From Promethearchaeia archaeon (lineage in GTDB: Archaea > Asgardarchaeota > Lokiarchaeia > Sigyniarchaeales > SOKP01), in the NCBI GenBank assembly GCA_029856145.1, contig JAHQWK010000028.1, forward strand, positions 15,316-79,315: a DNA stretch of 64,000 bases. Direction: 5' to 3'. The notes beneath the pieces were generated by a model that saw only the letters and a list, made by a program, of their open reading frames with translations, was not told the DNA's origin and ran no database searches. Both the position numbers and the translations under genes were made by a program. Positions 1 through 63,971 of this stretch are shown in pieces. Each line of letters opens with the position of its first letter. The stretch's first letter is position 1.

Positions 1-387
1 CCTATAATGACCAATTCCTTCTTTCATAGTTCCTGTTTCCGGATCATAAAGAATTTTATCCTCTATTCTATGACTCATGTGAAAAGCAATATCTATAGAT
101 GCCAGAGCCTTTTCGATACTGTCAAATTCTCGTGGCCACTTTGTATTCTCAGAAATTTTATTTCCTACTACATAAAGTGTATTTGGCCCAAAGACTTCAA
201 ATATTGTTTTAAATGCATCTAACCAGTTTTGTTGAGGATACCATTTATCTTTTTGAGGATTTTCAATATTATTATCAATTAAAATTTGTAATATTCTTTC
301 CTTGACAGTAGGTAATCCTTCAACCATTCCTAATATAGACTTTCCACTAACTTCTACTTTTGGATTAATTACTTTAAATTGCACCAA
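1..387 (-). CDS. Conserved hypothetical protein (possible V4R/H-NOX-like ligand-binding domain), runs off the window edge
   Basis: Hand translation from TTG at 387 gives MVQFKVINPKVEVSGKSILG...WYPQQNWLDAFK...ALASIDIAFHMSHR...GIGHYR, open to position 1. Absent from the ORF track because there is no stop inside the window. Family call is from recall only. Confidence 0.75.
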   Translation of the reverse strand, partial: MVQFKVINPKVEVSGKSILGMVEGLPTVKERILQILIDNNIENPQKDKWYPQQNWLDAFKTIFEVFGPNTLYVVGNKISENTKWPREFDSIEKALASIDIAFHMSHRIEDKILYDPETGTMKEGIGHYR

Positions 388-531
388 ACTTTTTCACAAA
401 ATTAAAATGACTTATAAGTAATATGGATATAGAAATATTTCATTTACTTATAATTTGAATTTTAAATTACTTTTTCGTAGCAACCTCTTAAACAATATTT
501 TCAATTACAAGAAAAAAAAAATTAAAAAAAA

Positions 532-717
532 TTAAAATCTACAACAAAGACTACGTCCATGATCAAGATTATATTTGAAATATTCCTCAGATAATGTTTT
601 CATAACTGTATCATAATCCAAATTTACTTCTTTAGATATGTCCTCAATCCCAATACCAGGTGTTGAGATTAATTCACAGATTTTTTTCTTAACTTCTTCG
701 CTAACTTCTATACTCAT
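532..717 (-). CDS. Small hypothetical protein, possible HTH
   Basis: 61 aa; GIEDISKEVNLDYDTVMKTL is HTH-like; co-oriented with cheB. Confidence 0.55.
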   Translation of the reverse strand: MSIEVSEEVKKKICELISTPGIGIEDISKEVNLDYDTVMKTLSEEYFKYNLDHGRSLCCRF

Positions 718-749
718 TATAATTAATTAATAGTTTTTATTAAAAAATT

Positions 750-1892
750 TTAACTAGTAAATTTGATCATTTCATCAATTATTTTATAATTTGGTAATAT
801 TAAATCTGCAGCACCTGTTTCAGCAGCAACTTTTGGCATTCCATATAGTACGCTTGTATCTTTTGACTCCGCTATTGTCTTTCCACCTCTGGATTTAATC
901 GCTTTGAGTCCATCTACTCCATCTCTTCCCATTCCAGTTAATAAAATGCCAAGTGTTTTTTCTTTATATACTCTTGCTGTTGAATAAAACAACACATCTA
1001 CAGAAGGTCTACAGAAATTTACGGGTTCTCCTTCATACGTTCTTACACAAGGTTTATTATCTTTAGCAGTAACTTGCATGTGTTTATCTCCTGGTGAGAG
1101 ATATATTGTTCCAGATTTTATCTCTTCATAATTTAATCCAATTTTTACGTTAACTTTACAAATATTTTTTAAAGACGTGGCAAATTGTCGCATGAAAAGA
1201 TGGTTTAGATGTTGTACGACTAAAACGGGTGCTGGAAAATCTCGAGGGACATCACTTAAGATTGTTCTTAAAGTTCTCGGACCACCTACACTGGCACCAA
1301 TTACTATGATTTTTGTAGACACCTTCGTAATAGTAATTGGAGTAAGGTCTAAAAAATAATCTTCTGATCTATGCTCTATTGATGATTCTAATATTTTATT
1401 AAATTGGACTTCTGGCTTTATTTTTACTTTTTGGCTTTGCTGAATAAAAATTTGTTTATTTAAAAAACGTATCTTGTTATCAATTTTATTATTTTTTCCA
1501 ATATCTGCTAGAATCACTTTTGATATTAATTTATCTCCAATAGTTGGAAGTACATCCTTCCAAACGCCGATAGGTTTAACAATATAATCATAAGATTTTA
1601 GAACGAGAGGAACTTCAAGAGAATCCATATTTTTAGGATCTACATCTGTCAATACAATAGTAGTTATGTTGAATTGTTTTATTATAAAATTAAAAGGTGT
1701 TAGCCAATCTTTATTTTCATATTCGATATCGAGAATTAAAACATCAGGATTCTTACTTTTTATGATATTAATAGATTCTTGTCCATTTCGTGCAACATCT
1801 GCTATTCTTATCCCTTTATGAGGAGAAAGCATATCAGATAATAAAGTTCTACGGTAGGCGGATTGAGAAGCTATTAATACAGTTTTTAGCAT
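750..1892 (-). CDS. cheB: Chemotaxis protein-glutamate methylesterase (REC + CheB domains)
   Basis: IGASVGGP (Ser), VVQHL (His), RPSVDVLF, LTGMGRDG (Asp); N-terminal receiver-like domain. Confidence 0.92.
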   Translation of the reverse strand: MLKTVLIASQSAYRRTLLSDMLSPHKGIRIADVARNGQESINIIKSKNPDVLILDIEYENKDWLTPFNFIIKQFNITTIVLTDVDPKNMDSLEVPLVLKSYDYIVKPIGVWKDVLPTIGDKLISKVILADIGKNNKIDNKIRFLNKQIFIQQSQKVKIKPEVQFNKILESSIEHRSEDYFLDLTPITITKVSTKIIVIGASVGGPRTLRTILSDVPRDFPAPVLVVQHLNHLFMRQFATSLKNICKVNVKIGLNYEEIKSGTIYLSPGDKHMQVTAKDNKPCVRTYEGEPVNFCRPSVDVLFYSTARVYKEKTLGILLTGMGRDGVDGLKAIKSRGGKTIAESKDTSVLYGMPKVAAETGAADLILPNYKIIDEMIKFTS

Positions 1893-2001
1893 TATTTTTC
1901 TCGTTGTCTTCTACTGAAAATAATGAAATTTCTTGTTTATATATATTCTGGTAATAAAACTAAATTGAAATTAAAAAGAATCAAATAATTATTACTTAAA
2001 A

Positions 2002-2697
2002 TCATTCTTCCAGAATAACTTTATGTGTGATTTTTCCTATTTGTTCTATTGACGCTTCAATAAGATCTCTTGGTTGGATTGGGCCTACTCCGCTTGGTGT
2101 GCCTGTTGCTATAATATCGCCAGGGACTAATGTAATAAACTTAGATAGAAAAGCCAAAGTTTCAGGAATTTTGAAGATCAAATATTTTGTATTTGAATGT
2201 TGACGAACTTCCCCGTTTATCTTCAATTGAAGTTCCAAATTATGAGGATCTTCAATCTCACTACAAGGAGTTATTCTTGGGCCTATAGGTCCAAATGTAT
2301 CGAAATTTTTGCTTCTGTACCATGGTAAGTTAATATTTCTATCACTTATCTGCATTTTCCTAGCAGTAATGTCAAGAAAAATAGTATAACCTTCAATATA
2401 TTCATATGCATGCTCACTTTGAATATTTTTACATGTCTTTGATACAATAAAAGCCAATTCTACTTCATGATCCACTCGATTATATTCTTGCGTATTGTAA
2501 AGTAATTTAGGATAAATTATTGGATTCCCATTAGTTACCAATGTATTTAATGTCTTTACAAAAAAAATTGGTTCTTTTGGAATCTTTGCTTTCATTTCTT
2601 TTGCATGTTCCACATAATTTCGTCCTAAGCATATAATTTTTGTTGGTTTTATACTATGATCTCCAAGCTTCATACTTTTTCTCTTATTTAGGTACAA
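2002..2697 (-). CDS. Fumarylacetoacetate hydrolase family protein
   Basis: KIICLGRNYVEHAKE, DHEVELA, DITAR, KNFDTFGPIGP, GDIIATGTPSGVG. Confidence 0.93.
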   Translation of the reverse strand: MYLNKRKSMKLGDHSIKPTKIICLGRNYVEHAKEMKAKIPKEPIFFVKTLNTLVTNGNPIIYPKLLYNTQEYNRVDHEVELAFIVSKTCKNIQSEHAYEYIEGYTIFLDITARKMQISDRNINLPWYRSKNFDTFGPIGPRITPCSEIEDPHNLELQLKINGEVRQHSNTKYLIFKIPETLAFLSKFITLVPGDIIATGTPSGVGPIQPRDLIEASIEQIGKITHKVILEE

Positions 2698-2798
2698 TTT
2701 TTAAATTAATTTAAAATATGATTAAACTTTAAAGAAATTTATCTTTCAGATTATTGTAAACTAAATGGAAAAATAGATATCTCAAAGAGTAGAAAAAA

Positions 2799-3368
2799 AT
2801 GAATGAAACAAATTCTAATACAAAACTGGATGAAAAAAAAGGGAAATCTCTAATTCAAACTAATCTAACAAAAAGAGTAGCAACAGCTGCTATATTTATA
2901 GCCGTTGGGATTGTATTAGCATTTTTCAATCCTTTTGCCTTTGTTGAAATTTTAGGAGGCCCTAAAATTTTTCCTATGGCGCATTTTATTAATGCTATAA
3001 CTGGTGTTCTAATAGGCTTAACTTTCGCATGTACAACTTCCCTAGGTATTGCTATTTTTAGATATCCTCTAGGAATTGGTTCAATTCATGCTTTTCATGG
3101 AGGTATCTCAGGCGCCTTAATTGTTGGAATCATGGCTTATATTTTACGGAAAAAAAAACCTGATTATGTAGAATATGCTGCTTTAACAGATCCAATAGGG
3201 ACGGTATTTATCGCAGCAACAATCGCTAATTTAATTTCACCAGTTAATCTCTTCTATTGGTGGGGATTATTCGCGGCTTCAAGTATACCTGGCTGTATTT
3301 TAGGCTTTCTGATGTTGAAATTTCTGAAGCGTCAAGGATTTTCCTGGACGGATTTTTTTCAAAAATAA
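2799..3368 (+). CDS. thiW: ECF transporter S component, ThiW family
   Basis: Multi-TM; FPMAHFINAITGVLIG, GSIHAFHGGISGAL, DPIGT resemble ThiW motifs. Confidence 0.75.
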   Translation: MNETNSNTKLDEKKGKSLIQTNLTKRVATAAIFIAVGIVLAFFNPFAFVEILGGPKIFPMAHFINAITGVLIGLTFACTTSLGIAIFRYPLGIGSIHAFHGGISGALIVGIMAYILRKKKPDYVEYAALTDPIGTVFIAATIANLISPVNLFYWWGLFAASSIPGCILGFLMLKFLKRQGFSWTDFFQK

Positions 3369-3380
3369 TATTTTTGGCTT

Positions 3381-3968
3381 ATGTTATTTCTAAATAATTT
3401 TAACTTTGAAAATTGTATTGGAAATCACACTCTCTTATATGGAGAAACTGATACAAAAAAGACTTATTACACTGCTAAATTTGTCCAATTTCTAATAGAA
3501 ACAAAAAAAATGAATCCAAAGGAAATTAGTATTTTAGATTTTGCCCCTCCAAATGAATGGATTAATAATATTAAAATTGGAGGTAAAATCGTGGATTTTT
3601 ATGAAAATAGTATTATCTGCAATAATTTTTACTTTAAAGGAGATATCATTCCACCTCGCCTTAATGCAAGAAATAAGAAAGAACTTTATAAAAATGCATG
3701 TAAGAATTTTAAAAAAACTTTCAATATATTAAAGATTTTCTCTAAAAAACCAACAAAAATATTAATTATTAATGATATATCTATTTATCTTCACATAGGA
3801 AATAAAAAACTATTATTAGATTCAATAAAAAGATCAAATACCTTTTTTGGGAATTCATACTATGGTTCTTCTATAAAAAGCGATTTTAATAATGTATTTA
3901 GCTTAAGGGAAAAGCGATTAGTTGAATATTTTTCTAAAAAGATAGAATATTCATATTTTACAGGATAG
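3381..3968 (+). CDS. Hypothetical protein with degenerate P-loop NTPase-like motifs
   Basis: HTLLYGETDTKKT (Walker A-like), ILIIND (Walker B-like). Confidence 0.6.
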   Translation: MLFLNNFNFENCIGNHTLLYGETDTKKTYYTAKFVQFLIETKKMNPKEISILDFAPPNEWINNIKIGGKIVDFYENSIICNNFYFKGDIIPPRLNARNKKELYKNACKNFKKTFNILKIFSKKPTKILIINDISIYLHIGNKKLLLDSIKRSNTFFGNSYYGSSIKSDFNNVFSLREKRLVEYFSKKIEYSYFTG

Positions 3969-4045
3969 AAATATTAATATCTTTTAGGACAAAATAATTT
4001 TAATTAATGCCCTATTTAATTATCTACAAATTAAAATAGAATTTT

Positions 4046-4699
4046 TTGATAGATATGAAAAAATTAATTTTATTTGGTCCTCCAGGAGCGGGAAAAGGCA
4101 CGTTCAGTTCACAAATTAAAAAAGTAGTAACTGAAATTGTTCATATAAGTACTGGAGATATCTTTCGTGAAAATCTAAAGAATGAAACGCCATTAGGATT
4201 AAAAGCTAAAAGCTATATGGATAAAGGAGAACTTGTGCCTGATGAAGTAGTAATTGATATGGTACGAGATAGATTAAATAAAGAAGATGCTAAGAAAAGT
4301 GGTTTTATTCTTGACGGATTTCCTCGAACCTTACATCAAGCAGAAGCATTATCAGAGATAACCGAAGTAGATTTACTTCTATTATTACAAGTTTCAAGAG
4401 ATATTATATTTAAAAGAATCTTAGGGAGGTATAGTTGTAATAATTGTGGTGAGATCTATAATAAATACACACTCCCAACAAAAGTAGAAGGAATTTGTGA
4501 TAAATGTGGTGCTGAAATTAAATTTGAGCAAAGAAGCGATGATAATGAAGAAACTTTGAAAAGTAGATTAGATGCTTATGAAAAGAATGCCAAACCACTT
4601 ATTAAATATTATAAGAAAAGAGGAAAACTGAAAAAAGTTGATGCTACAGATACATTGAGTTTCACTGATGATGATATAAAACAAATTATAGGAATATAA
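4046..4699 (+). CDS. adk: Adenylate kinase (bacterial/eukaryotic type, Zn-binding LID)
   Basis: GPPGAGKGT, HISTGDIFR, LDGFPRT, CNNC...CDKC, QRSDD. Confidence 0.96.
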   Translation: MIDMKKLILFGPPGAGKGTFSSQIKKVVTEIVHISTGDIFRENLKNETPLGLKAKSYMDKGELVPDEVVIDMVRDRLNKEDAKKSGFILDGFPRTLHQAEALSEITEVDLLLLLQVSRDIIFKRILGRYSCNNCGEIYNKYTLPTKVEGICDKCGAEIKFEQRSDDNEETLKSRLDAYEKNAKPLIKYYKKRGKLKKVDATDTLSFTDDDIKQIIGI

Positions 4700-14984: not shown

Positions 14985-15470
14985 CTAGAATTCCTCATAA
15001 GGCCCGCTTATTAATCCACCAACTGATCCTCCTATTAATACCCCTATTAAAGCGCTAATTATACCTCCTAAAGTCTCAATTAACTGATTTTCTGTGAATA
15101 AAGCCATTAAATCCACCTGAGAAAAAATGCTTAATATAATCCAAATTGATAAAACTATAACAACCACTAATGAACCTGCAATTACGCCTCGTCTTAAACC
15201 CTTTGCAATTGTACCTGAGATATAACCAATGAAAATCCATGCTAAAATCTCTGGTGCAAAAAAGCCGAGGATGGAAGGAGATCCAGTGATAAATGAAATC
15301 ATATCAAAATCAAAATTTGCTCCAACTAATAATGCAGCTATTCTTAATACATCACTTCCAGCATGTAACTCAATTTGATTTAGAATAACCATCATATTAA
15401 AGAAAAAGGCTGAAAAAAAACTTAATATGACCCCAATGATAATGCTAATAACTAATCGATAGGAAGTCAT
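14985..15470 (-). CDS. Hypothetical membrane protein
   Basis: Four or more Gly-rich TM segments. Confidence 0.75.
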   Translation of the reverse strand: MTSYRLVISIIIGVILSFFSAFFFNMMVILNQIELHAGSDVLRIAALLVGANFDFDMISFITGSPSILGFFAPEILAWIFIGYISGTIAKGLRRGVIAGSLVVVIVLSIWIILSIFSQVDLMALFTENQLIETLGGIISALIGVLIGGSVGGLISGPYEEF

Positions 15471-58613: not shown

Positions 58614-59582
58614 ATTCACGAATTTAAAACAGATTTGCAGGATTCTGGTTCCGGGATAGATATTCCCATAGATAAAGTGGGTATTGTAGAATTAGAAAAA
58701 AAAGTTGAAATAGTTCAAGAGAATAAAAAATATTCATTTTATCCTAAAATTTCAGCATTAATTAATCTTCCCGCTGAGCAACGTGGTATCCATATGTCCC
58801 GAACTTCAGAGACTATAGAGGAAGTCATTAATGAAGTAATTTTCAAACCAACTCCTACTATCGAGCTTGTTGGTGATAGAATAGTTCGAAAACTGTTAGA
58901 ACGGCACCCATACACTTCAAAAGCAGAAGTTAAGTTAGAAGGAAAGATTGTTGTTCAAGTCAGAGAAAATAATACAAGAAATATCCAAAAATCTTATGAA
59001 ATTAGCTCTTATGTTAAAGCTAACAGAATATCATCTACCAAAATTGAATATTTATATTTTATTGGGGCAAGCGCTGTCGGAATGACGGTATGCCCATGTG
59101 CAAAGGAAATGTCGCAAGAATATGCGTCTGAAATCATCAAAACCAGAAAAGATATTAATGTTTCAGAAGAGGATCTTAAAAAATTAATCAATATTCTCCC
59201 ATTTTCATCACATAATCAAAGGTCAATTGGCACAATTATTGTGCAAATTAAGGATTTATCCAACCATAAAATTGATGTGTTAGATATCATTGATGTAATA
59301 GAAGAATCAATGAGTGGTAAAATACAATCTGTGCTAAAACGACCAGAAGAAGCCGAATTAGTAAGAAGTGCTCACTTAAAACCCCTATTTTCTGAAGATG
59401 TCATAAGAGAAATGGCAAAAAACTTCATTTTAAGGGACTTTCCAAATATAGAAGATGATTCTAAAATAAAATTTAGTGTTGAAAGCTACGAATCTATACA
59501 CGTCCACAACGTTTTTGCGTCGTTAAAATCTACAATTGGGGATTTAAAGAAAAGATTGAAAATAAAAAATAAAACTACTTAG
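58614..59582 (+). CDS. mptA: GTP cyclohydrolase MptA (FolE2 family); probable ATT start
   Basis: DLQ, DKVGI, RGIHMSR, GMTVCPCA, SHNQR, LKRPEE, FSEDVIR, ESIHVHN. Confidence 0.92.
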   Translation: MHEFKTDLQDSGSGIDIPIDKVGIVELEKKVEIVQENKKYSFYPKISALINLPAEQRGIHMSRTSETIEEVINEVIFKPTPTIELVGDRIVRKLLERHPYTSKAEVKLEGKIVVQVRENNTRNIQKSYEISSYVKANRISSTKIEYLYFIGASAVGMTVCPCAKEMSQEYASEIIKTRKDINVSEEDLKKLINILPFSSHNQRSIGTIIVQIKDLSNHKIDVLDIIDVIEESMSGKIQSVLKRPEEAELVRSAHLKPLFSEDVIREMAKNFILRDFPNIEDDSKIKFSVESYESIHVHNVFASLKSTIGDLKKRLKIKNKTT

Positions 59583-59646: not shown

Positions 59647-60813
59647 TTATCTTTTCTTTAGAAAGTTTTTATAAATTACTATATAGTTTTTTACACTAAT
59701 AACCTTAGGATTTCTTTTGTAACTTAATGGAATAGGCGCATTGCATCGAGAGCAAAGACCAGAGGTTCTAAGCCAATCTCTAAACTCATCTGCATGGGCA
59801 GGATATCTACAATTTGGACACAATATTATTCCTCTACCATTGTCTTTAGGATATTCTGGTAATCTAAAACAAAAAATACATTTAAAATCCTCTATTGACA
59901 AATTTCCCGCTCTTGGTCTATATAATTTAAAATTTACTTGTTTTATTGTATTTTGACTCCTTCTAATTGGTTTTCCTGATGTACTTCTGCTTGTAGATCG
60001 AGTACTTGTTTTAACTCTAGAACTTCTAGATTGAGCGTGTCCGGTAGGTGTTCTTCTGGATGATTGAGAAACAGTTCTTGAAGTACGAGTCACAGTTCTA
60101 TTTGATGGTGTTGGAGAAGTTCTAGTTCGAGAAGTTTGACTCTGTGTTGCAGGAGATGAGCGTCTTGTTGGTGATGCTAATTGATTTAATCTTTTTGTAC
60201 GTTGCGTTATATAGTCTCTGGTTAATTGAGGTAATTGCACTCTAGTTCCAAAAAATCCGAGAACAATTAATATGAGAATTGTACTAATAAGGAATATTAA
60301 AAGATTAAGATCTATTAGAAAGTGGAGAGGTACTAATACAGATTCATAGAAATCAACAAATGAATAAAAACTAATCCAATAAATAATTATAAAAAGAACA
60401 ATTGAAATACTAAAAAAATAACCAAAAGTACGTGCTTTTACTGACTTCGTCCCAAAATAAATTACATTATATTTCTTAAAACAGCGATACAATGAAATTG
60501 AACCATATAATACGTAGGGAAATCCGAATAGAATACTCCACCAGCTTAAATATAAACTTGTTCCTTCTAGAAGATTTTCCCCTAATAAACCTGTAAAATT
60601 ACCCCAAATTGAATAAAATATCCCTATGAAAACAGGACCGATTGTGAAAAAAGCAGTATTATGAGGAGAATTAAATTCGCGATATTTTTTGATATTTTTT
60701 ATAACTTTAAAAGAATAAATTAACCAGATTCCGATTAATAACCAACTTACAAATACATTAAAGGAATTTAGAATAGCGCCATGTATAATACCGATTACCA
60801 AAAATATTACCAA
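59647..60813 (-). CDS. Multi-pass membrane protein with Ser/Arg/Thr-rich linker and C-terminal RING-like domain (putative E3 ligase)
   Basis: About 6 TM; CIFC-x16-CPNC-x4-H-x2-E-x3-W-x6-CSRC; last gene of the ubiquitin cluster; start may lie up to 36 nt upstream. Confidence 0.75.
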   Translation of the reverse strand: MVIFLVIGIIHGAILNSFNVFVSWLLIGIWLIYSFKVIKNIKKYREFNSPHNTAFFTIGPVFIGIFYSIWGNFTGLLGENLLEGTSLYLSWWSILFGFPYVLYGSISLYRCFKKYNVIYFGTKSVKARTFGYFFSISIVLFIIIYWISFYSFVDFYESVLVPLHFLIDLNLLIFLISTILILIVLGFFGTRVQLPQLTRDYITQRTKRLNQLASPTRRSSPATQSQTSRTRTSPTPSNRTVTRTSRTVSQSSRRTPTGHAQSRSSRVKTSTRSTSRSTSGKPIRRSQNTIKQVNFKLYRPRAGNLSIEDFKCIFCFRLPEYPKDNGRGIILCPNCRYPAHADEFRDWLRTSGLCSRCNAPIPLSYKRNPKVISVKNYIVIYKNFLKKR

Positions 60814-60871
60814 TGTAATTGCTATATATTTAATTTTAGTCTTCGTTATTAATCACCCTAGTTCTTATACT

Positions 60872-61684
60872 TCAATCTTCATCATATTCAAGGTATACCG
60901 CTTTCCCCTCAATTATAGGATTTATAAATTTTAAAATTTCTGGTAGCATTCGTACATCTAAGGATCCTTTAATTCCATATACCAATGGATACCATGTTTT
61001 AAATTTAAAATCTGCCTTATATATCTCAAATCCAGTAGATTTACCATCAATTTGATAAGGATCTATAACTAGCGCAACAGCTTTATCCCATAGTTTTTGA
61101 TATCTTGCTTGAGTTCCCATATCTTCATTAGACATGAAACAACCATATGATGGATGTGAATGATACCATCCACATATAAACAATTTCTGTCTCTTAATAT
61201 CTTTAAAAGCTCTCACATAATTTCTATAATCTTTAATCTCTGCATAAACTGCTGTACCGTGTCCCATTGGATAAGAATCTTCAATATGGATTATATTATT
61301 CCCATCTATTTTTCCTGCAAGAAGCCCAATAACCTCCACCCAACGTTCTCTTGGAATTTTAGAATTAGCATATTTGAGTGCATGACTCGCTATTTTAAGA
61401 ATTGCTTTTACTGAAATATAAATCTCCTTTTGTATTTCCTCTTTTTTTTGAGTTTTGACTTTTTTATTTTCTACAATATTAGCTGTAGGTATCTTTGTAA
61501 GTTTAATAATTGGTTTGGCAGAAGATTTTTGTATAAGCATTGAAGAAATTTCTTCAGTCAATTCATCTTCTTCTAACTGAAGTTCTTCACAAATTTCATC
61601 TATTAATTCTTGTTTTATTTTTTCTTTTATCTTCCTTTTAATTACATCCTTAATTGAATAATTCGCTAGGTCTTTATCTTCCAT
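60872..61684 (-). CDS. JAMM/MPN+ metallo-isopeptidase (Rpn11-like)
   Basis: EVIGLL, GWYHSHPSYGCFMSNED, ALVIDP. Confidence 0.92.
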   Translation of the reverse strand: MEDKDLANYSIKDVIKRKIKEKIKQELIDEICEELQLEEDELTEEISSMLIQKSSAKPIIKLTKIPTANIVENKKVKTQKKEEIQKEIYISVKAILKIASHALKYANSKIPRERWVEVIGLLAGKIDGNNIIHIEDSYPMGHGTAVYAEIKDYRNYVRAFKDIKRQKLFICGWYHSHPSYGCFMSNEDMGTQARYQKLWDKAVALVIDPYQIDGKSTGFEIYKADFKFKTWYPLVYGIKGSLDVRMLPEILKFINPIIEGKAVYLEYDED

Positions 61685-61690
61685 TAAAAA

Positions 61691-62218
61691 TCACCATTTT
61701 TTATTTGCGTACTTTTTAACAAGATTCTTTACTTTTTTCTCGAAAAATTTTTGATTTTTCATCATTTCTATTGCTGCTTTTTTATTAAAAACATCTGTTG
61801 GATTAACATATTTACCACGTGTGTTTAACATAGCAATTATCGCTTGAACAACGGTAACCGCAGTTTTTGAGGGGCTCCATCCACCTTTTTTCCCAACTAA
61901 AGAGGGATCTACTAAAGCTAGACAAATATTTCTTTGTCCTTTATATTCAGATGGTTTTGGCCAAAAATTTGGATGCCAAATTGGAGTATGCAATCTTACA
62001 AAAGGAGGTTGTTTAGGATATTGAGCAGGGAATTTCATTTCTAACCTAAAAAGACCACCTGCATAAACAGTACCCTTAGGTCCTTTAATGGAGATTGCTA
62101 AATGATCAATACTCTTCCTTTTAGGATTAAATGGTTTTAATTGAACAATACTACCTTCTTTAAGCATTTTTTTTAATCCCGCAAAATCTCGGGAAATACG
62201 ACTACTTCTTATACTCAT
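61691..62218 (-). CDS. Ubiquitin-conjugating enzyme E2
   Basis: IKGPKGTVYAGGLF, FPAQYPKQPP, IWHPNF...NICL, WSP. Confidence 0.94.
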   Translation of the reverse strand: MSIRSSRISRDFAGLKKMLKEGSIVQLKPFNPKRKSIDHLAISIKGPKGTVYAGGLFRLEMKFPAQYPKQPPFVRLHTPIWHPNFWPKPSEYKGQRNICLALVDPSLVGKKGGWSPSKTAVTVVQAIIAMLNTRGKYVNPTDVFNKKAAIEMMKNQKFFEKKVKNLVKKYANKKW

Positions 62219-62298: not shown

Positions 62299-63558
62299 TT
62301 AAAACCTTTTTTGATTCGAAATTTGTTTTAATTTTAAGGTTACAAAAATTTCTTCACCTTTGAATCCTGCAGCTGTCATAAACTCGTAATTTCTTAATCT
62401 ATTTTCACTAGGATTCTTTTCTAAATCAACTATCGTAACATCATTGAAATCTAATAAGGTTAGAATTGGCTCAGACTCTGGATCCAATTTAAATCCATTT
62501 TTCTTTAATATTTTAATAATGTTTACACAAGGTGATTGGGTTCTCAATTTTATAGTTACTCGGCGAACTTTTTTACCACATTGAGAACATTCTGGGTTTC
62601 TTGTTTTTTCAATATGATAAAATTTCATTGTAATTGCATTAAAGATTACATATGTTCTAATAGGTTCGCCTAATCCCTTATGACCCTTATTTAAGTGAAG
62701 GATTTTTATTACCTCATGTGATTGTAAAGCAGAAATAACTGCATTTATAGTTATAATACCCGGATCGTGTCTATCGATGATTTTCACAATATCATCTTTT
62801 GTATATTCAGGTAAGAAATTGTGTTTGTTTACTAATTCATTTGCAACCTTTTGAATGAATTTAATATCATTTACATTTTTTGGATTCGGATCTCTATCAA
62901 ATTTTTCTTTAAATGCCATATCTCCTTTAAAAAGGCAATGAATCCTTTTTCGAGGGACGCCAACCACTGTACAAGCAGCCATCTCATCATTCTCTCCTAC
63001 AGGCAATGGATTACATTCATAACAAGCATTTTTATAAGGAAATATTGTGTATACATGACCATAATAACCAGATACTCCTCCATCTACTAATGGTTTTTTA
63101 AACCTTATACATTGTGCATTTAAATTTAGACGTGCATTCATCGAATCAAGACCTCCAACAATAACATCAGCAGCTAGATAAAGTGCTGGATTCAATCGTT
63201 CTAAAGAAGTATGATATCCGTTTACAATAATATTAGGATTAATTTCTTTTAGTTTCCTTGCTGCAACAACAGCCTTAGGCTCCCCTATCTTCGCTCCTGT
63301 AAAAAGAACTTGACGATTCAAATTTGAATGTTCAATGATATCTAAATCAATAAGATCTAATTGACCAACTCCAAGCATTGCTAAGTTTTTAGCTATTTCA
63401 CAACCTAAACCTCCAATACCAACTATTAGCACTCTTGAGTTCTTCACTAATTTCTGAGACCAACCTTCCAGACGAAACTGACGATCATACAGGTCTCTCT
63501 CCTCCGTTGATAATTCTTTTGCAAAAAAGTCTGAATCCTTATCCAATCTTATCACCAT
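62299..63558 (-). CDS. Ubiquitin-activating enzyme E1-like (ThiF domain plus catalytic Cys domain)
   Basis: YDRQ, VGIGGLGCE, SNLNRQ, ACYEC, AACTVVGVP (catalytic Cys), CSQC. Confidence 0.93.
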   Translation of the reverse strand: MVIRLDKDSDFFAKELSTEERDLYDRQFRLEGWSQKLVKNSRVLIVGIGGLGCEIAKNLAMLGVGQLDLIDLDIIEHSNLNRQVLFTGAKIGEPKAVVAARKLKEINPNIIVNGYHTSLERLNPALYLAADVIVGGLDSMNARLNLNAQCIRFKKPLVDGGVSGYYGHVYTIFPYKNACYECNPLPVGENDEMAACTVVGVPRKRIHCLFKGDMAFKEKFDRDPNPKNVNDIKFIQKVANELVNKHNFLPEYTKDDIVKIIDRHDPGIITINAVISALQSHEVIKILHLNKGHKGLGEPIRTYVIFNAITMKFYHIEKTRNPECSQCGKKVRRVTIKLRTQSPCVNIIKILKKNGFKLDPESEPILTLLDFNDVTIVDLEKNPSENRLRNYEFMTAAGFKGEEIFVTLKLKQISNQKRF

Positions 63559-63638: not shown

Positions 63639-63971
63639 TTACCCCGCTGTACTCGCAGGGATTAATAGAATATCATCGCCATCGTTTACATCATAGTCTC
63701 TTAATGAGCTATTTTCATCCATTGTAACGCCGCCAGATGATAAATGAAAATCATTAGGATCAAGACCATATAAATTTCCTAATGTTTCCTTAATATCTCT
63801 TACGCGATTACTGTCGTTCACAGTTAATTTTTCTTTCTTTTCACCAGGACCAATTGTTGACATGAAGTATAATGTTAATTTCTTTCCTGCTGAAGGGGTT
63901 TTAGACGCGGGAGTTTTAGATTTTACTGGTTCTTCTCCACCCAAATTTTCATCAAATTCATCAAAACTCAT
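63639..63971 (-). CDS. Ubiquitin-like modifier (beta-grasp) with disordered N-tail and C-terminal AG
   Basis: LTVNDSNRVRDIKE...LSSGGVTMDENSSLRDYDVNDGDDILLIPASTAG; first gene of the E1-E2-JAMM-RING cluster. Confidence 0.88.
   Translation of the reverse strand: MSFDEFDENLGGEEPVKSKTPASKTPSAGKKLTLYFMSTIGPGEKKEKLTVNDSNRVRDIKETLGNLYGLDPNDFHLSSGGVTMDENSSLRDYDVNDGDDILLIPASTAG

Follow-up and report, generated by a model that had tools for sequence, protein, structure and literature searches.

Does an operon for ubiquitin-like conjugation in an Asgard archaeon include a ligase that is built into the membrane? The question is raised by a gene on contig JAHQWK010000028.1 (assembly GCA_029856145.1; Promethearchaeia archaeon, order Sigyniarchaeales), of which we analysed a stretch of 64,000 nucleotides (contig positions 15,316 to 79,315), hereafter the window; all coordinates are counted from its first letter. 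The gene is the last of five co-oriented minus-strand genes that encode, in this order, a ubiquitin-like protein (Ubl), an E1, an E2, a JAMM isopeptidase and a multi-pass protein with a RING-type finger, which we call the polytopic RING protein. Its open reading frame (ORF), translated from 59647-60870, gives six transmembrane (TM) helices, a basic disordered linker and a C-terminal zinc finger. The initial annotation had described the same layout from the letters alone, with a linker of about 85 amino acids (aa) rich in Ser, Arg and Thr, and both the translation and an AlphaFold2 (AF2) model bear it out. The polytopic RING protein had no significant Pfam, NCBIfam or PADLOC family, and public records label the members of its family as hypothetical protein. 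We consider it probable that the gene product serves the Ubl-E1-E2-JAMM operon as its dedicated E3 ligase, predicted to be anchored in the membrane. Residues are numbered according to the 388-aa form that begins at the TTG codon at 60813.

We examined the predicted fold of the finger in an AF2 model based on a deep alignment of 97 sequences, which reached a predicted local distance difference test score (pLDDT) of 84.4, with both folded domains above 90; a model based on close homologues only (pLDDT 53) was set aside. Among the best 50 of the 361 Foldseek matches (E up to 10), every one was a RING domain, a U-box domain or a RING-like finger from IFT-A or GATOR2, with TRIM37 (3lrq; E 0.056) at the top and Arkadia, the HRD1 RING, RNF4 and Ring1b/Bmi1 after it. 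VIA-align was run on the Foldseek list and, independently, against 48,161 chains. It gave a Z of 7.4 for 3lrq (74 aligned residues, root-mean-square deviation 4.2), 6.9 for Ring1b and 5.4-6.9 for the other RING and U-box rows listed (TRIM21/25, CHIP, RNF4, RNF8, Rad18 and UHRF1), over residues ~303-388; across the listed RING and U-box matches, 55-91 residues were aligned with a Z of 5.4-7.4. According to this model and its matches, the C-terminal domain is predicted to have a RING-type fold.

PHD fingers share the C4HC3 ligand order and the linear spacing C-x2-C-x4-H-x2-X, and they carry a Trp two residues before ligand 7. The finger could be a reader of the PHD, FYVE or zinc-ribbon kind, or a binder of nucleic acid or lipid that works together with the linker, with no relation to an E2. 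The shared spacing, the strongly basic linker and weak zinc-ribbon matches in some family members speak for such a function. However, every listed match over residues ~300-388 was a RING, a U-box or a RING-like zinc finger, in agreement with the initial annotation, and no PHD or FYVE chain was among the Foldseek and VIA-align matches listed, although absence from a list is no proof; the PHD fold that would have contradicted the initial annotation was not seen there. The Trp of the finger lies four residues after ligand 6, at the RING position, and not two before ligand 7, where the residues preceding C354 are Gly and Leu; in addition, the gene is always found next to an E2 gene. We rejected a PHD or another non-RING finger as the leading reading, given the match lists and the place of the Trp, and a finger unrelated to E2 appears so improbable that we give it hardly any weight.

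The RING-type finger follows the pattern C-x2-C-x16-C-x2-C-x4-H-x2-E-x3-W-x6-C-x2-C, with the residues CIFC-x16-CPNC-x4-H-AD-E-FRD-W-x6-CSRC in the window. The family comprises 344 clusters at 90% identity and, in a search of 1.84 billion representative proteins, 120 representatives at 50% identity, and all its named members came from metagenome-assembled genomes of Asgard archaea (Promethearchaeota). In the alignment of 97 members, which reaches down to ~20% identity, the only invariant columns were P300, C312, C315, C332, C335, H340, W347, C354 and C357, while E343 was kept in more than 90% of the sequences. Among 215 members with the motif, the Trp was invariant and ligand 6 was Glu in 214 and Ala in one.

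A BLASTP alignment to one canonical RING-H2 finger placed C335 at C3, Y337 at H4, H340 at H5, E343 at C6 and W347 at the RING Trp; aligned in this way, the fourth ligand appears shifted ahead of C3, forming a C-P-x-C knuckle. RING ORFs of the same genome share the spacing (C-x2-C...C-x2-C-x4-H-x2-C-x3-W...C-P-x-C), and three of them have Cys at the place of the Glu. The same spacing is seen in distant soluble relatives that pass the Pfam zf-RING_2 cut-off and have His, Cys, Glu or Asp at that position. We assign E343 to ligand position 6 because of the Cys in the same-spacing paralogues and the His, Cys, Glu or Asp in the distant relatives. All of these residues are metal ligands; the assignment of E343 as a ligand is positional. 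The initial annotation had noted both a Glu at ligand 6 and a Trp four residues later, and the alignment, the motif count and the paralogues all agree with it. We also observed that the genome holds four further RING-finger ORFs in total (L087, L088, L089 and L090; 106 to ~570 aa), three of them being those with Cys at ligand 6 and the same spacing. Two of the distant soluble relatives carry tandem RINGs: P0237 has three, with Glu, Cys and Asp in turn at ligand 6, and P0232 has two of the same spacing, both with His.

Four observations weigh against the E3 reading. No member had Arg or Lys directly behind the last Cys, the place of the basic linchpin in many RINGs (Asn in 142, Asp in 33 and Ser in 22 of the 215 members); Ser replaced the Pro that follows ligand 7 in 196 of the 215; the polytopic RING protein fell below every Pfam RING cut-off (best zf-RING_16, E 0.36, 11 bits vs 27.4); and a Z of 6-7 is middling in absolute terms. 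As for Z, the weight lies in how uniform the match list is and in the fact that the matches span the entire domain. Weak sub-threshold Pfam matches were found among the 97 members (Prok-RING_1 in 28, zf-RING_16 in 27 and zf-RING_2 in 20), and a profile search of the PDB returned the RING of RNF24 at E 0.007, the remaining matches being low-complexity or TM noise.

The missing linchpin, the Ser in place of the E2-contact Pro, the Glu among the zinc ligands and the failure to reach any Pfam RING threshold could together mean that the protein is a weak or inactive RING-like membrane receptor. Such a receptor would dock the E2, the Ubl or the JAMM enzyme as a scaffold, without activating the charged E2 (E2~Ubl), or it would mainly be a substrate or sensor whose modification regulates its TM domain; the conserved cytoplasmic loops of that domain, which suggest partner docking, would suit this role. 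On the other hand, the two principal hydrophobic positions for E2 contact vary hardly or not at all: F314 precedes the second ligand (Ile-Phe in 190 of the 215 members) and W347 never varies, even though the canonical linchpin and Pro are absent. Moreover, many RINGs and U-boxes are active without a basic linchpin, and the strict retention of seven Cys/His residues plus the Glu across deep divergence argues for a working finger. We consider an inactive receptor unlikely and favour a finger that functions with its E2.

The six helices of the TM domain were placed by AF2 at residues 2-15, 18-46, 54-70, 91-113, 127-152 and 169-187. The successive loops contain 0, 5, 0, 6, 0 and 8 Lys plus Arg residues, and the N-terminal extension is also rich in Lys; by the positive-inside rule, these counts point to a topology with both termini inside and the finger in the cytoplasm. 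According to the model and this rule, the six helices are predicted to hold the polytopic RING protein in the cytoplasmic membrane; the initial annotation had likewise proposed a membrane anchor. The cytoplasmic loops have conserved motifs (family consensus R-x2-NSP-x-N, and a hairpin with KY-x3-Y-x3-K-x3-AR), which suggest docking of partners on the inner face; one outer loop is conserved as well.

We found no sequence relative of the TM domain outside the family among the 1.84 billion representative proteins, and a search of the ESM Atlas with this domain gave no usable match. The VIA-align matches listed for residues 1-195 were designed helical bundles, TPR-like repeats and similar folds with a Z below 7.3, which is the noise level for helical proteins. 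None of the 50 best VIA-align rows for the whole-protein model was a Hrd1, derlin, Doa10 or Pex chain; such an absence among the matches listed is no proof against homology of the TM domain.

These results bear on whether the protein is a true homologue or a precursor of the ligases of endoplasmic-reticulum-associated degradation (ERAD) or of peroxisomes (Hrd1/gp78, Doa10/MARCH, Pex2/10/12), with a TM domain that recognises or retrotranslocates membrane or secreted proteins. The layout is the same, with a polytopic membrane domain and a cytosolic RING, the HRD1 RING is among the fold matches, and the organism belongs to the Asgard lineage. Nevertheless, the TM domain stands alone in the sequence search and finds only generic helical bundles among the 50 best structural rows; it has six helices, not the eight of Hrd1; the ligands are C4-H-E-C2 and not RING-H2; and the finger sits at the very C-terminal end, separated from the helices by a long linker. 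We regard true homology to these ligases, or a place as their precursor, as very unlikely. The likeness to Hrd1 and gp78 put forward in the initial annotation holds for the layout, but no homology of the TM domain was found by the sequence search or among the VIA-align rows listed.

Between the membrane domain and the finger, the linker is ~80-100 aa long, and the AF2 pLDDT stays below 50 through about residues 214-292. Those 79 residues comprise 37 Ser or Thr, 15 Arg, 6 Pro and 3 Lys, and neither Asp nor Glu. Across the family, the length (44-124 aa), the disorder and the net charge (about +16 on average) are conserved, but the Ser/Thr content is not: about 10 of the 97 members have a linker made of Lys, Arg, Glu and Asp in place of the Ser/Thr-rich one. 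This weakens the earlier suggestion that the linker is a target of phosphorylation. The share of Lys among Lys and Arg is 0.17 in the linker of the window protein and 0.30 in the family, vs 0.70 in the long ORFs of the window. A lysine-poor linker would fit avoidance of self-modification, and other explanations are possible. We also observed that the TM loops favour Arg over Lys in this Lys-dominated genome (0.17-0.34 for linker and loops, against 0.70), and linker and loops may form a lysine-poor zone beside an E3. The weak Pfam matches to PFF1_TM, Neur_chan_memb and Glycoprotein_G were discarded, as all of them lay on the low-complexity linker.

The assignment of the gene to a ubiquitin-type pathway comes from its neighbours. 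The order Ubl-E1-E2-JAMM-RING was kept in all loci with enough DNA (80 species loci), and E2-JAMM-RING were adjacent in 8 out of 8 distant Asgard genomes from other families and classes, where the RING protein shares 25-45% identity; the close linkage to the E2, a neighbour that the initial annotation had noted, holds across the phylum. In six of these eight genomes Ubl-E1 adjoins the other three genes, and in two (L093 and L098, from another family of the phylum) it lies a few kb away, so that E2-JAMM-RING appears as a conserved core module from which Ubl-E1 is separated. The RING gene is single-copy in its 3.55-Mb, 97%-complete genome. Within a sample of 400 genomes of the phylum, the family was found in 117 of the 134 genomes of the window's own family, and full-length matches (E ~1e-66 to 1e-122) were also found in several other families. 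The RING family occurs in several further classes too, and a full-length copy is present in a closed genome of 6 Mb from the same order. We link the polytopic RING protein to the pathway because its gene is single-copy, the operon order is kept and E2, JAMM and RING genes are adjacent. Operon-encoded RINGs are active E3s in Caldiarchaeum (PMC5654768) and in Helarchaeia (bioRxiv 10.1101/2023.07.25.550441).

If the protein is the E3 of this operon, it would act as follows. In zinc site 1, C312, C315 and H340 would be joined by E343, whose carboxylate would stand in for the Cys or His normally found as sixth ligand, and in zinc site 2 the CPxC knuckle (C332 and C335) would pair with C354 and C357. 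The finger would bind the Ubl-charged E2 of the operon through the usual RING surface, formed by I313/F314 and W347, while the flexible and strongly basic linker would tether it on the cytoplasmic face. Substrates or partners would be selected by the TM domain, which is specific to the family and has conserved loops in the cytoplasm, and the Ubl would be passed to lysines of membrane or membrane-associated proteins, the RING protein itself possibly among them. The neighbouring JAMM enzyme would take the Ubl off again: the Ubl ends with a single free C-terminal Gly, so no C-terminal processing is required, which would leave deconjugation as the only task of the JAMM enzyme. The role in membrane-protein quality control or signalling that the initial annotation had suggested is speculative.

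The initial annotation had placed the start of the gene at 60849, where the codon is ATA. Related loci instead have an ATG or GTG start one codon downstream of the ATA position, 6 nucleotides after a conserved GGTGA. The homologous codon in the window is ACG (60846-60844), an ACG that is also present in the related locus L013, and the K-x-K-I-K codons that follow it are kept in frame in both. Homologues of 398-402 aa open with M-x-K-x-K where the window has ACG, and the first canonical start codon of the window gene is the TTG at 60813. Judging from these alignments, the true start is probably the ACG, which would give a protein of ~400 aa; the sequences suggest that initiation takes place either at this near-cognate ACG or at the TTG, the latter with a shortened first helix. 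The coordinates of the gene, of its parts and of the other operon genes are collected in Table 1.

Table 1. Positions in the window of the polytopic RING gene, its predicted parts and the other genes of the operon; (-), minus strand.
Feature	Position (strand)	Remarks
Polytopic RING gene	59647..60849 (-)	Stop codon 59647-59649; 388 aa from TTG 60813, ~400 aa from ACG
GGTGA, Shine-Dalgarno-like	60853..60857 (-)	6 nucleotides upstream of the homologous start; conserved in related loci
Six-helix TM domain	60253..60849 (-)	Residues 1-187 of the 388-aa form plus N-terminal extension; AF2 pLDDT >95
Juxtamembrane helix (199-213) and disordered basic linker, rich in Ser/Thr/Arg/Pro and poor in Lys	59938..60252 (-)	pLDDT <50 for residues 223-289; composition
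C-terminal domain, predicted RING-type, with short N-terminal helices and a C-terminal helix	59650..59937 (-)	Residues 293-388; pLDDT ~81-97 per 10-residue block
Metal-ligand core	59743..59880 (-)	C312, C315, C332, C335, H340, E343, W347, C354, C357
Glu343 codon, RING ligand position 6	59785..59787 (-)	
JAMM/MPN+ isopeptidase gene	60872..61684 (-)	Pfam JAB 1.2e-17; HSHPSYGCFMSNED motif (HxHx7Sx2D) intact
E2 gene (UBC fold)	61691..62218 (-)	Pfam UQ_con 1.2e-25; HPN, catalytic Cys, WSPS loop
E1 gene, ThiF-type adenylation domain and C-terminal extension	62299..63558 (-)	Pfam ThiF 9.5e-61
Ubl gene	63639..63971 (-)	Product ends ...PASTAG; Pfam ubiquitin 1.6e-06

The Ubl gene ends 29 bases from the end of the window. 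In relatives, three further genes lie upstream of it (L005:583-2576; compare own contig C9:4035-4483): a divergent winged helix-turn-helix regulator (225 aa), a 264-aa protein with a C-terminal ubiquitin domain and a 141-aa Ubl. With the operon Ubl, the locus thus has three Ubl-type genes. Contig C9 opens with a near-identical copy of the operon (positions 1-4500, L082) that is broken within the JAMM gene (E2 97%, E1 89%, Ubl tail identical). We rejected this copy as a paralogue; it is probably a strain variant cut by an assembly break, which fits the contamination estimate of 5.4%. Genome-wide, we detected five UQ_con-type matches (E2 matches in L081, L084 and L085) and five ThiF-type E1-like genes, and these counts make more than one Ubl pathway likely. 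Downstream of the RING gene, a convergent gene (58635-59582, plus strand) encodes a GTP cyclohydrolase of the FolE2/MptA type (Pfam GCHY-1, E 9.5e-59). Most relatives keep this gene in synteny with the RING gene, and it is apparently an unrelated housekeeping neighbour.

Two further candidates were rejected. An anti-phage defence operon was discarded, as PADLOC returned only a generic E1 match and the operon is single-copy, syntenic and located beside housekeeping genes. Soluble short forms of the polytopic RING protein were discarded too: 66 shorter proteins were returned, most of them apparently truncated family members from contig ends (several are marked as partial, and many lie on contigs 1-3 kb long), and none of the 66 was named as a protein of the small RING finger (srfp) type.

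The archaeal RING E3s known from such operons are small soluble proteins, but the likely E3 of this core syntenic operon is predicted to be embedded in the membrane. If the E3 reading is true, it places ubiquitin-type tagging at the membrane in a prokaryote, and it bears on the origin of ERAD, on the endosomal sorting of ubiquitylated cargo and on the Asgard link between ubiquitin and the ESCRT complexes. That a structural zinc-ligand position is occupied by a nearly invariant Glu poses a clear-cut biochemical question of its own. The soluble tail, the E1, the E2 and the Ubl are small proteins, which makes reconstitution feasible, as for Caldiarchaeum. A broader proposal, which we put forward tentatively and think unlikely, is that the protein is an ancestral ubiquitin ligase for membrane proteins. 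Its six-helix domain would recognise clients in the membrane or associated with it (membrane proteins that are misfolded or in surplus, or ribosomes bound to the membrane, the latter reached through the basic linker). Once tagged with the Ubl by the RING, these clients would be sorted by ESCRT or extracted by Cdc48 and the proteasome; the protein would then be a prokaryotic forerunner of the ERAD-type and endosomal E3s, with the carboxylate zinc site as a conserved functional peculiarity.

Compared with known systems, the layout of a multi-pass membrane domain plus a cytosolic RING is shared with Hrd1/gp78, MARCH/Doa10 and Pex2/10/12. These eukaryotic ligases differ, however, in helix number, ligand pattern and domain order, and no homology of the membrane domains was detected in the sequence search or among the VIA-align rows listed. 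The RING-H2 of Hrd1 and gp78 reads C-x-H-x2-H-x2-C, in contrast to C-x2-C-x4-H-x2-E in the polytopic RING protein. Unlike the ERAD ligases, the latter belongs to an organism with no endoplasmic reticulum, and its site of action would be the cytoplasmic membrane. The label "ERAD-like" or "Hrd1-like" is best taken as an analogy of layout and not as shown homology. RING-CH (RINGv) proteins such as MARCH and Doa10 carry at the N terminus a C4HC3 finger of C-x-C-x7-H spacing and have their TM helices after it. The window protein instead has its finger at the C terminus, with C-x2-C-x4-H spacing and Glu as the sixth ligand. The initial comparison with RINGv is right about the C4HC3-type ligand order, but the window protein shares its spacing with the Asgard RINGs of its own genome.

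Those Asgard C4HC3 RINGs (zf-RING_2 or Prok-RING_1), found in the own genome and in others, have the same ligand spacing and the Trp at the same place. They differ in ligand 6 (Cys, or His/Asp, in place of Glu), in the residue after ligand 7 (Pro in place of Ser) and in having no six-TM domain. Bacterial versions of Prok-RING_1 are said in the Pfam note on this family to contain TM helices, so membrane-linked RINGs are not unprecedented in prokaryotes. The papers on archaeal ubiquitin systems that were searched mention no transmembrane RING.

Together with these Asgard RINGs, the closest known parallels are the srfp E3s of Caldiarchaeum subterraneum (PMC5654768) and of Helarchaeia (bioRxiv 10.1101/2023.07.25.550441), which are likewise encoded in an operon with a Ubl, an E1, an E2 and a JAMM/Rpn11-like protein, and which likewise have a RING-type finger with a conserved E2-contact Trp. 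For the Caldiarchaeum finger, a Cys that is shifted or additional at ligand positions three and four is reported (PMC5654768), and no transmembrane form of this srfp is mentioned in that article and its supplement. The srfp E3s are small and soluble, and the Caldiarchaeum one was described as RING-H2 (C3H2C3), whereas the window protein has ~400 aa, six membrane passes, a long basic linker, C4-H-E-C2 ligands and no basic residue after the last Cys. What sets the window protein apart from these closest known proteins is the six-pass anchor, the basic tether and the Glu at ligand position 6.

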